A DNA stretch of 64,000 nt from a virus. This document shows, piece after piece, positions 4,559 to 14,030 of the stretch. Below the pieces are notes generated by a model. The model was not told the DNA's origin and did no database searches. It saw only the letters and a list, made by a program, of their open reading frames with translations. The stretch lies in IMG/VR virus record IMGVR_UViG_3300034031_000020, positions 15,452-79,451 of that record; one strand, 5' to 3'. A program made the position numbers and the translations under genes. Positions within the stretch are counted from its first letter, which is position 1, and every line of letters begins with the position of its first letter.

Positions 4559-4725
4559 TTTAAGGGGTGTAGGGGTGTACCAGGTACACCCCTTGGCTAC
4601 AAATAAGCCTGAATCGACGATCATCGAAAAAGGCTCTGACCTGCATATATATAAAAAAATGGTCTGATATATAGAGAGGGTTTGCGGCCAAGGGGTGTAC
4701 CAGGTACACCCCTACACCCCTTAAA
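4559..4725. repeat. 39-bp inverted repeats flanking an AT-rich core (candidate replication origin)
   Basis: 4559-4597 and 4687-4725 are reverse complements with one mismatch; each contains the palindrome GGGGTGTACC-A-GGTACACCCC; the spacer contains ATATATATAAAAAAAT. Confidence 0.85.
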
Positions 4726-4762
4726 TCAAGATCACGGCACGTCGAGCGAAGGAGCCATCCAG

Positions 4763-5431
4763 GTGAGCGAGCGACCCGACAGCGACCACAGCGACAACGT
4801 CCCGGACGTGACCACCTCAGCCGGGGAAGACATCACCGAGAACACACAGCGAGTGACAGACGGCCGTCCGGCGGTTCCTGTCGATGCGGTCGAAGGCCGG
4901 ACCCCGACGGGCGGCGAGGGCGGTTCGCGGCAGGGCCTGGGTACGGGTCGGGTGTCGGTGGTCCACGTGGACGCGGCCTCCGGTGCCTCGCTCCCCCCGT
5001 TCGACGTCTCGGCGGCGGTCGCGGCGTGCGTCGCGGCGACCGGGGCACCGGTGGCGCTCACGCCCCCGCAGTGCTGCCCGGTGTTCCCGGACGGCGCGCA
5101 TCGGTGCGGCCTGCCCGCGACGCACCTCGCTGGCACCTCTGAGAGCGCCGTGGAGGGCCGTTCGGCGGCGGACCACGTCTGTGGGTGCGGCTTCGTGTGG
5201 TGTTCGACCTCGGGCGGCGTGAGCGGGCTGTGCGCGGACATGGAGCAGTCGTCCCGGTCGGGCGCTGAGCGGGTCGTGAGCCGGATCGTGGAGCGGCTGA
5301 CGAAGGTGGGGTACGACCTGACCGACAAGGAGTGGCGGGTCGCGGCGGGTGCGGGCGGCGGCGGCCGTTCGGGGTTCTCCCCGGTGGAGGTGGTCCGGCA
5401 GGTGGCGCGCCGGGAGGGCGCCGATCTGTGA
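4763..5431 (+). CDS. Hypothetical protein (Cys/His cluster)
   Basis: GTG at 4763 after AAGGAG RBS; CC..H.C..H..H.C.C cluster. Confidence 0.6.
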   Translation: MSERPDSDHSDNVPDVTTSAGEDITENTQRVTDGRPAVPVDAVEGRTPTGGEGGSRQGLGTGRVSVVHVDAASGASLPPFDVSAAVAACVAATGAPVALTPPQCCPVFPDGAHRCGLPATHLAGTSESAVEGRSAADHVCGCGFVWCSTSGGVSGLCADMEQSSRSGAERVVSRIVERLTKVGYDLTDKEWRVAAGAGGGGRSGFSPVEVVRQVARREGADL

Positions 5432-5479
5432 GACCCTTCTGGGCGGTATGAACTGCCTGCCGACTTGGAGGACCTGAGG

Positions 5480-6187
5480 ATGATCACCAACACGGACGCC
5501 CCCGTGCACGGCCACACGGCCGACAGCACGGGGGCGCGCACCGACGAGGCCCCGACGGATGTCCTCGACGACCGCGCGGATTGTGAGCACTGCCGAGGGA
5601 CGGGGAAAGCGTTGCGGACGTCGGACTGGCTGGCGGCGTCGTTGACGCTGTTCCCGACGGAGTCCCCGGAGAAAATGGACTCGATCATCGCGGAGTTCTA
5701 CCGGCGGCTCGTGGCCGCCGACGAGGGCAAGGACCTGGGCGACCGGGTCGCCCCGCTGTTCCCGGCGGACCTGACGACGGGTCCGGCGTTGAACTCGAAA
5801 GGCAACCGGCAGCGGGACATGCTGCTGCACGCGATCGTGAGCTTGGTCGAGAACTTCGACCCGGATCATCTGAACTCGGCGAACATGCGCCAGTTGGTGG
5901 AGATCCTCCGGAAGGAGGGCCGTAACCACGCCGCATTCGAGCGCCCGGACGGCACGGTGCGTGGGGTGACGCGGGCGGAGTACGAGGAAGTCGGCGCCGT
6001 CCTGATGACGATGCTGCGGGAAGTGTTCGCCGACCTGTGGCTACCCCAGTTCGACGCGGGGTGGGTCGAGGCGTACGAGTTCGCGATGATCGAGATGCTG
6101 CACGCGCAGCAGCACTATCGGATGCCGGACGGCCGCCGACCGCAGTTCGGGCGCCGGGTCCGGGCCTCCGTGGGGGGTGCCGAGTGA
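5480..6187 (+). CDS. Single-domain globin (flavohemoglobin-type globin fold) with N-terminal CxxCxGxG motif
   Basis: EFYRRL (B10 Tyr), PLFP (CD1 Phe), NRQRDML (E7 Gln), GRNH (F8 His), GVTRAEYEEVG, GWVEAY; GGAGG RBS before ATG 5480. Confidence 0.8.
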   Translation: MITNTDAPVHGHTADSTGARTDEAPTDVLDDRADCEHCRGTGKALRTSDWLAASLTLFPTESPEKMDSIIAEFYRRLVAADEGKDLGDRVAPLFPADLTTGPALNSKGNRQRDMLLHAIVSLVENFDPDHLNSANMRQLVEILRKEGRNHAAFERPDGTVRGVTRAEYEEVGAVLMTMLREVFADLWLPQFDAGWVEAYEFAMIEMLHAQQHYRMPDGRRPQFGRRVRASVGGAE

Positions 6188-6758: not shown

Positions 6759-7055
6759 ATGTTGATGACACCTGCCCCGCCGAGGGGCACCGATGAGGCC
6801 ATCACGATCATCCGGGACGAGGACGGGCGCCTGCACCTGGAGGGCGACGCCGAGCCGCCCGCGTACACGGCGTTCTCGGCGGAGTTGCTGGCGATGCTGC
6901 GCCGCAGCGGCTCGCTGTGGGCGTCGCTGGACGGCGACACGGTCGTGATGCGGTTGACGGGCCTGACCCTGCGGTACCAGCTCACCGGGGAGGTCGACCT
7001 GGGTGACGCCCACGTCGGCCAGCGGGTCACTGAGGACGGGGAGCCGTGGCCATGA
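6759..7055 (+). CDS. Hypothetical protein
   Basis: ORF in operon, stop overlaps next ATG. Confidence 0.6.
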   Translation: MLMTPAPPRGTDEAITIIRDEDGRLHLEGDAEPPAYTAFSAELLAMLRRSGSLWASLDGDTVVMRLTGLTLRYQLTGEVDLGDAHVGQRVTEDGEPWP

Positions 7056-7591
7056 GGATGCGGCTGGCGACGTCCCGGTTCGACGACGAAACGCGTGTCC
7101 TCGTGGAGGCTCTCGACGCTGAGCACTGGAAGACGCTGCGCGACATCACGTACGGCCCGTACACGGTCCCGGCGGGGTTCCGCACGGACTTCGCTTCGGT
7201 CCCCCGCGTCGCCGTGTGGTTGATCCCCCGGTTCGGCCGGTTCACCCTCGCCGCGATCCTGCACGACTATCTGTTGACCTTGGTTCGGGCGGGTTCGCTG
7301 GCTTCGGTGGAGGCGGACCGGGTGTTCCGGGAGGCCCTGGCCGGGTTGGATACCCCACCGGTCCGGCAGTGGTTGATGTGGACGGGTGTCCGGTGGGGCG
7401 CGGCGGCGAGCCCGTACCGGCGGGCCGGTTGGTGGCGGACCGCGCCGCAGGTCCTGGGGATGACGGTGGCCGTGTTGTCGACGGTGGTCATCCCGGTCGC
7501 CGTGGTCGCGGTCGCGCTCGGGCTGGCGGTCTATTCGCTGTTCGAGGCCGCAGCGACCGGCGGGCGCCGCCGGGGCAACCTGACCACGTAG
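7052..7591 (+). CDS. DUF1353-family protein with C-terminal membrane helix
   Basis: VPAGFRTDFASVPR...AAILHDYL...ADRVFREAL signature. Confidence 0.85.
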   Translation: MRMRLATSRFDDETRVLVEALDAEHWKTLRDITYGPYTVPAGFRTDFASVPRVAVWLIPRFGRFTLAAILHDYLLTLVRAGSLASVEADRVFREALAGLDTPPVRQWLMWTGVRWGAAASPYRRAGWWRTAPQVLGMTVAVLSTVVIPVAVVAVALGLAVYSLFEAAATGGRRRGNLTT

Positions 7592-11901: not shown

Positions 11902-13593
11902 GTGACGCTCCTGTTGGTGCTGCCCGGCGGCGCCACCTCCACCCCCGCCACGGCCACCCCCGCCACCATCGCCCGGACCGTGGCCGTGGCGGGGGCGCCC
12001 GCGACCGGCTCGACGGCGGCCCCGGTGACCATCGCGCGCACCGTCGCCGTCGCCGGTACCGCAGCGACCTCGTCGGCGGCCACGGCCACCCCCGCCACCA
12101 TCCCCGCGACGACGACCGTCGCCGGGTCCGCGTCCACCTCGGCGGCGGCCACCGCCAACCCGCCCACCGTGGCGGGCACGACGACCGTCGCGGGCGAGCC
12201 GGGCGCCGGTTCCACCGCGTCACCGGCCACCGTCACGCGAACCGTCGTGATCGCGGGCACGGCGATGGCGGGCGCCACCGCGACCCCGACGACGGTCGCT
12301 CGGACGGTGGCCGTCGCGGGGGTGGCCACAGCGGGATCCACACCGGCCCCGGCCACGATCACCTCGACGGGAGCCGTCGCCGGGGCAGCGCAGGGCGGGG
12401 TCACCGCTGTACCCGCGACCGTCACCGCCGTCACCGCCGTGGCCGGTACCGCCGCCACCGCGACGGGCTCGTCCGCGACCCCGCCCACCGTCACCGGGTC
12501 GGCGGCGGTGAGCGGCGCGCCCGCGACCGGCGCCACACCCGCTCCCGCGACGACGATCACCAACGCGGCCGTGGCCGGTGCCGCCACAGCGGGCACCGCA
12601 CCCACACCCGCGACCGTCGCCCGCGCCGCCGTGCTCGCGGGCGCGGCGTCCGCGAGCCGGACCGCCACCCCGGCCACGGTCCCGGGCGTCACCGCCGTCA
12701 CCGCCACGGCCACGCTGCCCGCCGTCGCCACCCCGGCCACGGTCGCGCGGGCCGTGGTCGTGGCCGGTGACGCGTCGACGGGCCTCGCGCCGCTCCCACC
12801 GACGATCGCGCCCCCGGTCGTCGCGGTGGCCGGGCAGCCCGCCGTGGGTCACACGGCAACCCCCGTGACCGTCGCCCCGCCAGCGACCGCCGTCGCTGGT
12901 ACCGCCGTCGCCGCGTCGGGTTCCACGGCCACCCCGGCGACGGTCAGTCCCGCGACCACGGCGGTCGCGGGATCCCCCGCCGCCGGTTCCGCTCCAGCTC
13001 CCGCGACGACCGCCCCGCCCAAGGTGACCGTCGCGGGTGTCGTCGCACTGTCGCGGACCGCCACCCCCGCCACGGTCGCGCGGACCGTGGCCATCGCGGG
13101 TGTCGCGGGCGCTTCACGGACGGCCACCCCCGCCACGGTCGCGGGTTCCGTCACGGTGGGCGGCATCCAGGCGGCGGGAGTGGCCCCCGCCCCCGTCACC
13201 GTCGTCGGCGCGGTGCTCATGGCGGGTGTCGTCCAGGTCGGGTCGACGGTCACGGCGACCACCGTCACGGCCGTCGCCGTGATCACCGGGCCGACGGTCA
13301 CCAGCCCGACGACGGTGGTCGTTGCGACGCTGCACGGCGCGGCCGTCACGGCGGGTTCGGCGTCCGCGAGCCGTAGCGCCACGGTTCCCGTGCTGACCGT
13401 GGCGGGGTTCGCGTGGGTGTCGGCGACCGTGTTCAGCGACGTGATCCCCCACGTGGATGTGGAGTCCGCGACCCGGTTCGTCGCGGCACTGGACGGCGTG
13501 GCCCGCATGACGTCCACCCCCGGCTCGTCGACCAGGTTGACCGCGTCGACGGAGAACGTAGGGTCGGCGACCGTCACGGGGGTCGTCGGGTGA
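11902..13593 (+). CDS. Ala/Thr/Val/Pro/Gly repeat protein (fibre- or whisker-like)
   Basis: About 20 degenerate ~25-aa repeats of the type ATPATVARTVAVAG. Confidence 0.7.
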   Translation: MTLLLVLPGGATSTPATATPATIARTVAVAGAPATGSTAAPVTIARTVAVAGTAATSSAATATPATIPATTTVAGSASTSAAATANPPTVAGTTTVAGEPGAGSTASPATVTRTVVIAGTAMAGATATPTTVARTVAVAGVATAGSTPAPATITSTGAVAGAAQGGVTAVPATVTAVTAVAGTAATATGSSATPPTVTGSAAVSGAPATGATPAPATTITNAAVAGAATAGTAPTPATVARAAVLAGAASASRTATPATVPGVTAVTATATLPAVATPATVARAVVVAGDASTGLAPLPPTIAPPVVAVAGQPAVGHTATPVTVAPPATAVAGTAVAASGSTATPATVSPATTAVAGSPAAGSAPAPATTAPPKVTVAGVVALSRTATPATVARTVAIAGVAGASRTATPATVAGSVTVGGIQAAGVAPAPVTVVGAVLMAGVVQVGSTVTATTVTAVAVITGPTVTSPTTVVVATLHGAAVTAGSASASRSATVPVLTVAGFAWVSATVFSDVIPHVDVESATRFVAALDGVARMTSTPGSSTRLTASTENVGSATVTGVVG

Positions 13594-13925
13594 GCCGCTC
13601 CGGCCGGTCGGGGACCGGGAACTCGGCGTACCGCACGAACCGCGCGCAGTTGCTCGCGCAGACGGACCGATGCGCGCTGTGCGGGCACGGCGGCGCGAAG
13701 ACGGCCGACCACAAGGTGCCTCACGCGTTGTGGCCGCGCGACGCCCGGGGCGCGCTGCACCCTGGCTTCGATGACCTGGCGAACCTGCAACCGGCGCACG
13801 GCAGCATGGGCGGCCGTCAGCCGCACAACCCGTGCCTGGTGTGCGGGGAGATGTGCAACCAGAAGCGGGGGGCCCGGGTCCGGCACCGGCCACAGACCCG
13901 GGACTGGTTCCCGAACCGCACCTGA
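13590..13925 (+). CDS. HNH endonuclease (packaging-associated type)
   Basis: CALCG...TADHKVP...NLQPAH...CN.KRG motif; GTGA coupling. Confidence 0.85.
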   Translation: MSRSGRSGTGNSAYRTNRAQLLAQTDRCALCGHGGAKTADHKVPHALWPRDARGALHPGFDDLANLQPAHGSMGGRQPHNPCLVCGEMCNQKRGARVRHRPQTRDWFPNRT

Positions 13926-13987
13926 CCAGCGGTTACGCAGGCGGGGTTCCACTTTTGCCACCGACAATGAGGCGTTATCGGACACGA

Positions 13988-14030
13988 TCACGTCCGGGGG
14001 GTTGCACAATCACGTCCCGGGGGTTAGGCT
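13988..14030 (+). promoter_or_regulatory. SigA-like promoter with tandem operator (site A)
   Basis: TTGCAC 14002-14007, 17 bp, TAGGCT 14025-14030; TCACGTCC(C)GGGGG(G)TT twice, 22 bp apart. Confidence 0.75.

Follow-up and report, generated by a model that had tools for sequence, protein, structure and literature searches.

A phage-borne family of single-domain globins with a flavohaemoglobin-type haem pocket and a conserved two-cysteine module

The closest described counterparts of the gene reported here are the globin domains of flavohaemoglobins (1cqx, 1gvh and 4g1v) and the stand-alone single-domain haemoglobins, such as Hell's Gate globin I (3s1i), Vitreoscilla haemoglobin (VHb; 1vhb/3tm9) and Campylobacter Cgb (2wy4). 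Hmp, VHb and Cgb stabilise O2 and dioxygenate nitric oxide (NO) with a Tyr-B10/Gln-E7/Leu-E11 pocket, Tyr-G5 is the proximal hydrogen-bond partner in flavohaemoglobins, and the three single-domain haemoglobins just named must borrow a reductase. Those three are chromosomal genes of cells, whereas the globin described here is a phage gene, located at 5480-6187 on the plus strand of a window of 64,000 nt. The window, which is the whole stretch of DNA that was analysed, covers bases 15452-79451 of the virus record IMGVR_UViG_3300034031_000020 (79,451 bp, CheckV 100% complete), and all features given below by nucleotide position in the window are on its plus strand. The gene product, P0001, is a real classical 3-on-3 globin of the flavohaemoglobin/single-domain (VHb/Cgb-type) lineage, and it belongs to a distinct globin clade with a new conserved two-cysteine module, the globin fold itself being already known.

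The fold was obtained directly by structure prediction, which the first-pass annotation of this DNA had proposed as a check. The AlphaFold2 model of P0001 (mean pLDDT 80.5, pTM 0.73) contains helices at residues 47-55, 63-81, 107-125, 134-149, 165-182 and 189-211, and the 3-on-3 globin domain spans residues 44-215 (5609-6124) according to VIA-align to 3s1i_A and the family profile against the PDB. The closest structure was 3s1i_A, with Z 15.1, an rmsd of 2.0 Å over 130/131 residues and 24% identity, followed by neuroglobins (Z 14.4-15.0), the flavohaemoglobins 4g1v and 1gvh (Z 13.9) and 2wy4 (Z 13.7); the flavohaemoglobin globin domains as a group share the 3-on-3 fold with an rmsd of 2.6-2.8 Å over 140-144 residues. 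With Foldseek, the top matches listed for the same model were all globins, the best E value (1.2e-3) being slightly above the 1e-3 line. The model of a relative, P0006 (100 sequences; pLDDT 89.8, pTM 0.81), was compared exhaustively, without Foldseek, with 48,161 PDB representatives, and all 50 of the matches listed were globins, with Z values of 12-15 for classical 3-on-3 globins, 10-12 for globin-coupled sensors and about 8 for truncated globins. Structural neighbours listed in the ESM Atlas included single-domain globins and actinobacterial flavohaemoglobins.

The sequence comparisons point in the same direction, and the combined signal greatly exceeds what chance would give. With phmmer, all 10 PDB matches of P0001 at E <= 10 were globins (best E 0.011), a 14-sequence profile reached its best globin at E 6.5e-5, and a profile of 126 family members, the set being made up of members shorter than 500 aa, gave 36 matches at E <= 1e-3, every one a globin. 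The best of these were 3wfw (3.7e-12), 3s1i (5.2e-9) and 1cqx (9.9e-8), and VHb (3tm9, 1vhb) was also among the profile and structural matches of the family. The alignment to 1cqx, the Ralstonia eutropha flavohaemoprotein, spans its residues 5-136, which is the complete globin domain. Of the 126 members, 56 matched the Pfam Globin model PF00042 at E <= 1e-3 (best 8.2e-9), Globin being the sole Pfam family in the set, but the Pfam Globin check that the first-pass annotation had also suggested failed for P0001 taken alone, with no PF00042 match even at E <= 1. In NCBIfam the single match of P0001 was the NO-inducible flavohaemoprotein NF009805, a weak one (E 0.0068), and in PHROGs it belongs to no family, with nothing better than 0.08. 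The fold, the family profile and the pocket residues together bear out the earlier claim of a stand-alone globin of flavohaemoglobin lineage.

The haem pocket was read from the family-profile alignment to 1cqx, from which the helix assignments of P0001 were taken. Phe73-Tyr74 pairs with the FY of 1cqx helix B, and Tyr74 (5699-5701), the distal B10 residue, is present in 125/125 aligned members. Phe94 at CD1 (5759-5761), opposite the Phe of VF in 1cqx, is likewise present in 125/125 aligned members. Leu115 aligns with the E11 Leu of 1cqx, and Gln111 is therefore E7; in the stretch from Gln111 through Arg112, Asp113 and Met114 to Leu115 (5810-5824), Gln is kept in 125/126 members, Arg in 126/126 and Leu in 124/126. 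The proximal F8 residue His150 (5927-5929), the predicted haem iron ligand, lies opposite the His of KHAS in 1cqx and is found in 126/126 members, and Tyr168 at G5 (5981-5983), opposite the Tyr of EQY, in 121/125 aligned members. Tyr-B10, Phe-CD1, Gln-E7, Leu-E11, His-F8 and Tyr-G5 are thus held in common with flavohaemoglobins, and the family, as read from this alignment, is under strong selection on the haem pocket. At the H23 position, which in the register of the HMM alignment lies 11 residues after Tyr199, Gln occurs in 72 and Ala in 42 members; in 1cqx we take this residue to be Glu. Every residue named in the first-pass annotation was found, namely CEHCRGTG at 35-42, Tyr74, Phe94, Gln111, His150, Tyr168 of the G-helix motif and A198-Y199 of the H-helix motif.

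Unlike the flavohaemoglobins, P0001 has no FAD/NAD(P)H reductase, carries Gln or, in relatives, Ala at H23, and has insertions in the CD-E, EF and FG regions, a cysteine knuckle and a basic tail. The absence of the FAD/NAD reductase domain had been noted before and is upheld, as the protein ends 20 residues after helix H and neither FAD_binding_6 nor NAD_binding_1 is found in the 126 members. No reductase was seen elsewhere in the phage, either by Pfam among 48 other open reading frames (ORFs) or by PHROGs. The loop insertions, also noted before, appear in the 1cqx alignment as about 8 residues in CD-E, 5 in EF and 8 in FG. The FG insertion (F153-V160; 5936-5959) is family-specific, faces an 8-residue gap in 1cqx, 3s1i and 3zhw, and is modelled as a small beta hairpin, with DSSP strand marks in both the P0001 and the P0006 models; F153 is kept in 119 members, R155 in 109, D157 in 101 and G158 in 119. 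It lies at the position where flavohaemoglobins touch their reductase module, and it is therefore a candidate docking site.

The hallmark of the family is CEHCRGTG at residues 35-42 (5582-5605), which makes up one CxxCxGxG cysteine knuckle and takes the shape of a beta hairpin in the models. This N-terminal extension had been described before as a feature of the one protein; the motif is there, but it is not a one-off, since a CxxC lies 32-42 residues N-terminal of Tyr-B10 in 115/126 members and marks a large family. C35 and C38 are each present in 118/121 aligned members and G42 in 119. Most family members have exactly two cysteines and one motif each, extra motifs being confined to 5 of 157 proteins (two or three motifs in P0003, P0072, P0084 and P0113, and only an extra CxxC in P0008), and P0001 is the sole CxxCxGxG protein among the 83 called ORFs of the phage. 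Because the knuckle is modelled at pLDDT 73-87 in P0001 and 86 in P0006, it is predicted to pack against the globin domain, next to helix A.

The regions flanking the knuckle and globin are modelled with less confidence. The acidic leader (residues 1-34; 5480-5581) has pLDDT 40-51 over residues 1-30, and in relatives the part preceding the knuckle measures 14-267 aa (median 108), is rich in Pro, Ala, Asp, Arg, Thr and Glu, and carries no Pfam family in any of the 126 members. At the C-terminus, a basic RxxR (Arg225 and Arg228; 6152-6163) lies in a tail with pLDDT 47-55; R225 and R228 are each found in 121 members, and RxxR falls within the last 15 aa in 110/126. An upstream motif of the form [DE][STAQ]GxH (D-S-G-x-H), modelled in P0006 at pLDDT 64-68, occurs in 49/115 members.

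Two readings of the cysteine pair were rejected. Attachment of a c-type haem (CxxCH) does not fit, as a His follows the second Cys in just 11 members. A Cys2-His site completed by the upstream D-S-G-x-H motif does not hold as a general ligand set, since P0001 has Arg in place of the His and 3 of its 13 closest relatives also lack that His. Most likely the two cysteines would act as a module, responsive to metal or redox state, for tuning or anchoring the globin. A distant subgroup (P0129-P0157) has CxxCG in place of CxxCxGxG together with the same pocket residues, a GRRRR C-terminus and often D-S-G-V-H upstream; all 10 of its looked-up clusters were metagenome-only, on contigs up to 85 kb, and no viral contig with this subgroup was found.

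Two copies of residues 26-235 together with one Zn and two haems were submitted to complex prediction. The homodimer reached an ipSAE of 0.54 (runs 0.55, 0.54 and 0.54) versus 0.00 for the best control, with 100% contact agreement between runs and a partner pLDDT >= 85; of the calibration cases, 20 of the 30 solved homo-pairs and 1 of the 23 single chains attained the mark. The predicted interface is symmetric and formed by the H-helix face of residues 200-218 (6077-6133) plus residues 131-132 and 165. P0001 is thus probably a homodimer joined through its H helices, with the reservation that the pass may reflect likeness to known globins because dimeric globins have already been solved. The knuckles are not brought together in the predicted dimer, whose interface lies on the H helices, and a Zn(Cys)4 bridge joining the two knuckles is therefore not supported by that model, although such a bridge may yet form.

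Compared with other known systems, P0001 fits the VHb/Cgb-type class of stand-alone globins with an Hmp-like pocket and no reductase, and is atypical through its knuckle, FG hairpin and tail. The single-domain haemoglobins are stand-alone classical globins of about 130-146 aa with no extension, whereas P0001 has, in addition to the FG hairpin, 43 further residues at its N-terminus, the knuckle among them, and about 20 at its C-terminus. The best profile match, the globin-Roadblock/LC7 fusion HGbRL (3wfw), is matched over the B helix and the G-H helices, but it has a different fusion partner, at the opposite end, and no Cys knuckle. Neuroglobin and cytoglobin are among the top structural matches at about 20% identity, but these are hexacoordinate globins with a distal His-E7, and their cysteines are in the CD-D region and not before helix A. 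The knuckle hairpin has the same 8-residue CxxCxGxG motif as the DnaJ-type zinc finger and Anti-TRAP, which use two motifs (4 Cys) per zinc, whereas P0001 has one motif and 2 Cys. No DnaJ zinc-finger Pfam match was found for P0001 at E <= 1, nor among the 126 members, and Anti-TRAP was matched by 1 of 14 members (E 0.044).

The family is large and has been met in viral and metagenomic DNA. A word-indexed search returned 13 homologues of P0001 with 40-62% identity, two of them with a precomputed Globin domain, and an exhaustive HMM search with the alignment of the 13 homologues returned 550 proteins at E <= 1e-3, 172 at <= 1e-10 and 121 clusters at <= 1e-30. A family of over 100 sequence clusters sets P0001 apart from a stray gene. 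Besides the window, 9 IMG/VR contigs (8-76 kb) and 6 metagenome contigs carry members, and all 20 looked-up clusters were metagenome-derived (longest contigs up to 97 kb), bearing, where a name was given, 'hemoglobin-like flavoprotein' or 'hypothetical protein'. The search of viral databases proposed earlier gave a divided answer, with homologues on the IMG/VR contigs and none in 50,697 deposited phage records (three queries). The earlier remark that globins are rare in known phages agrees with this, with the lack of a PHROGs family and with the BFVD viral structure set, which holds no convincing globin. Two pattern scans of cellular genomes (one per species, 185,579 species) found no member, these scans using three short peptide patterns that divergent members may escape. 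A degenerate DNA pattern search returned only one contig, which was already known. The 6 sequencing runs listed for this DNA, labelled as soil and biocrust, included no RNA run, and the one that contains it in full may be the source sample. The family has so far been seen solely on phage or phage-sized metagenome contigs and is apparently a phage-confined clade.

Two further kinds of protein also came up in the searches. The only Foldseek match of probability 1.00 in BFVD was A0A5K0UC55, a 357-aa protein of the giant virus Yasminevirus, which was not counted as a globin in view of its TM scores of 0.33/0.23 and rmsd of 20 Å, and which could hold a globin-like domain. The profile search also drew four giant proteins (P0076, P0127, P0131 and P0141) of 1029-2461 aa with 7-14 tandem globin domains.

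For function, we tentatively favour a phage-borne single-domain haemoglobin doing O2/NO chemistry with host reductases. Haem b would be held by His150, probably in a homodimer joined via the H helices, and the Tyr-B10/Gln-E7/Leu-E11 pocket would stabilise O2 during infection for reaction with NO, the protein acting as an NO dioxygenase that yields nitrate. The ferric haem would then be re-reduced by a flavin or ferredoxin reductase of the host, possibly docked at the FG hairpin. In soil Actinomycetota this would protect those steps of phage multiplication that are sensitive to NO and O2, and the Cys pair would tune or anchor the globin through a metal or a disulfide.

Several observations weigh against this reading. 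We infer all three of its elements, haem binding, ligand chemistry and the reductase partner. P0001 alone matches nothing in Pfam at E <= 1 except a chance CDC14 match, and scores 15.4 bits against NF009805, the Hmp equivalog, whose cut-off is 432. The flavohaemoglobin proximal triad is incomplete, with His-F8 and Tyr-G5 kept and Gln210 at the Glu-H23 position. The invariant Arg112 (126/126), the FG hairpin, and the Cys knuckle with the RxxR tail are all without counterpart in known NO dioxygenases and may point to another job. Knuckle residues 35-42 lie outside the confident dimer contacts, so that the two knuckles are not brought together. Across the 10 loci compared, the globin is the single gene common to all, and no neighbour, WhiB included, is constant.

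It is less likely that the protein acts as an oxygen buffer or carrier like VHb, feeding O2 to host terminal oxidases or O2-dependent enzymes and so keeping up energy and nucleotide supply during phage replication in oxygen-poor wetted soil. P0001 shares its fold and pocket with VHb-type globins and is stand-alone without a reductase, and its predicted homodimer recalls VHb, which is a dimer. Against this, the sequence offers nothing that would tell delivery of O2 from dioxygenation of NO, Pfam shows no oxidase or O2-dependent enzyme in the phage, and such a role leaves the Cys knuckle and the basic tail unexplained.

Those non-globin parts are where a haem-based gas or redox sensor or regulator has its appeal, a reading which is equally doubtful. 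In it, ligand or redox state would alter target binding and so time the infection, with the knuckle, the upstream D-S-G-x-H or the basic tail binding a target of host or phage origin, perhaps a transcription factor or nucleic acid. The conserved non-globin parts (CxxC in 115/126, RxxR in 110/126 and [DE][STAQ]GxH in 49/115) resemble interaction modules, the variable leader looks disordered, the knuckle resembles the protein-binding motif of DnaJ and anti-TRAP, the latter matched by one member as noted above, and the globin gene is located among regulatory and replication genes. Against this, sensor globins (Z 10-12) match the fold less well than classical globins (Z 12-15) do, none of the 126 members matches Protoglobin (PF11563) or an output domain, P0001 lacks the His of the upstream motif, and there is no conserved partner gene.

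Capture of host haem or another haem chemistry (haem sequestration, or peroxidase or nitrite reductase activity) is improbable. The pocket is built to hold haem, and with Gln or Ala at the Glu-H23 position the proximal-side electronics would differ from those of Hmp, but the strict distal conservation of Tyr-B10, Gln-E7 and Leu-E11 would be needless for mere haem storage, and no haem uptake or degradation gene was seen in the phage. Reuse of the globin fold as a scaffold without haem, as in RsbR-type non-haem globins, is very improbable, for although P0001 misses the Pfam Globin model and RsbR-type domains do occur far down the structural lists, His-F8 (126/126), Phe-CD1 (125/125) and Tyr-B10 (125/125), which non-haem globins lose, are kept, and the best structural matches are haem globins.

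A bolder reading, also rather unlikely, makes the knuckle-globins a phage-invented haemoglobin class in which the two cysteines would form an internal redox or metal centre that would feed electrons to the haem or report NO or oxidants. Such a centre could be a switchable disulfide, or an Fe or Zn site whose remaining ligands come from another chain or from a protein of the host, and its electrons would replace the missing reductase domain. If this were true, soil actinophages would carry their own device for neutralising or reading nitric oxide, and the protein would rank as the first viral haemoglobin with a function, hinting that NO plays a part in the conflict between phage and host.

The favoured reading, O2/NO chemistry with host reductases, has consequences of its own. 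If true, haem-based O2/NO chemistry would be one more function that phages import into hosts, their replication in soil Actinomycetota would be genuinely limited by NO or oxygen stress, and the family would offer a compact reductase-free globin scaffold with a Cys-based control element. The data suggest that some phages may supply the infected cell with an O2- or NO-handling haem protein of their own. Few proteins have been studied as closely as the globins, but searches of the full-text literature outside its subscription-only part found no paper on a haemoglobin of a phage, on any other viral globin or on a globin with a CxxCxGxG motif. Nearest to the subject comes PMC12304974, whose available part lists soil viral auxiliary genes including 'hmp' and does not describe the knuckle-globin family, and in the available part of PMC11480375 only bilin-binding globins are mentioned, as possible partners of phage bilin enzymes.

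The reading frame at 5480-6187 is a genuine gene, with 235 codons from ATG 5480 to the TGA at 6185-6187 and a GC content at third codon positions (GC3) of 0.92 in a phage genome of about 69% GC. A Shine-Dalgarno-like GGAGGA (5467-5472), read from the sequence as a consensus match only, lies 7 nt 5' of ATG 5480; this ATG is the likelier start because the alternative TTG 5465 falls within the GGAGGA site. This uncultivated phage carries genes for a large terminase, portal, head protease, major head protein, tape measure and GH25 lysin, as well as WhiB, a primase/polymerase, Erf, an exonuclease and a RuvC-like resolvase, and no integrase was seen among the identified genes. The phage context given in the first-pass annotation is correct, the globin gene lying beside replication genes with the phage WhiB 4 kb upstream (PF02467, E 2.1e-12). 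The nearest deposited phages infect Gordonia, Mycobacterium, Rhodococcus, Arthrobacter and Microbacterium, so that the host is taken to be a high-GC member of the Actinomycetota; identity to these phages is low (terminase 24-27%, primase/polymerase 35-41%).

Among the loci with a family member, L001 is syntenic with the window (WhiB, primase/polymerase, globin and DUF1353). In L006-L010 the globin gene is flanked on one side by an HNH endonuclease and on the other by a large terminase of another family (phrog_38, not phrog_9) and a different portal, an arrangement also present on four metagenome contigs. The knuckle-globin gene is thus spread over at least two phage lineages. The neighbouring genes looked at belong to no Pfam family, and none of them is present in all loci. 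Protection of the WhiB Fe-S cluster, which had been proposed for the globin, is compatible with the window and L001 but is not general, since WhiB is not a constant neighbour. The other roles suggested earlier, protection of replication and oxygen sensing, are extrapolated from the conserved Tyr-B10/Gln-E7 pocket.

Several further features near the gene were observed. The ORF directly upstream of the globin (4682-5431, likely start GTG 4763) is Cys/His-rich and falls into no Pfam or PHROG family. A short Cys/His block of its product recurs in the ORF upstream of the L001 globin (BLASTP E 2e-7, 70 aa), and the protein may be a metal-binding neighbour in this lineage only. In the second lineage a conserved gene, with no Pfam match, lies immediately upstream of the globin (L006:2257-2703, L007:4362-4979, L009:2558-3247, L014:2313-2924 and L016:2430-3278) and overlaps the globin start in L006. 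Between the primase/polymerase gene and the two-gene unit ending with the globin sits an inverted repeat (4559-4725) with 45-nt arms at 4559-4603 and 4681-4725 that are 93% complementary and separated by a 77-nt AT-rich spacer. The same 23-nt palindromic element lies in each arm (4571-4593 and 4691-4713), 0 of 100 shuffles reached the observed match count, and the repeat may serve as a pair of operators on either side of a promoter, or as an origin.

Farther from the globin, the DUF1353 protein at 7046-7591 (PF07087, E 5e-25) carries the PHROGs label 'tail assembly chaperone'; its gene lies among the early/replication genes, far from the tail genes, and is common to L001 and L002. The GC3-based gene call placed no ORF between 11891 and 13413, and GC content reaches 0.768 at 12001-14000, compared with about 0.69 elsewhere.

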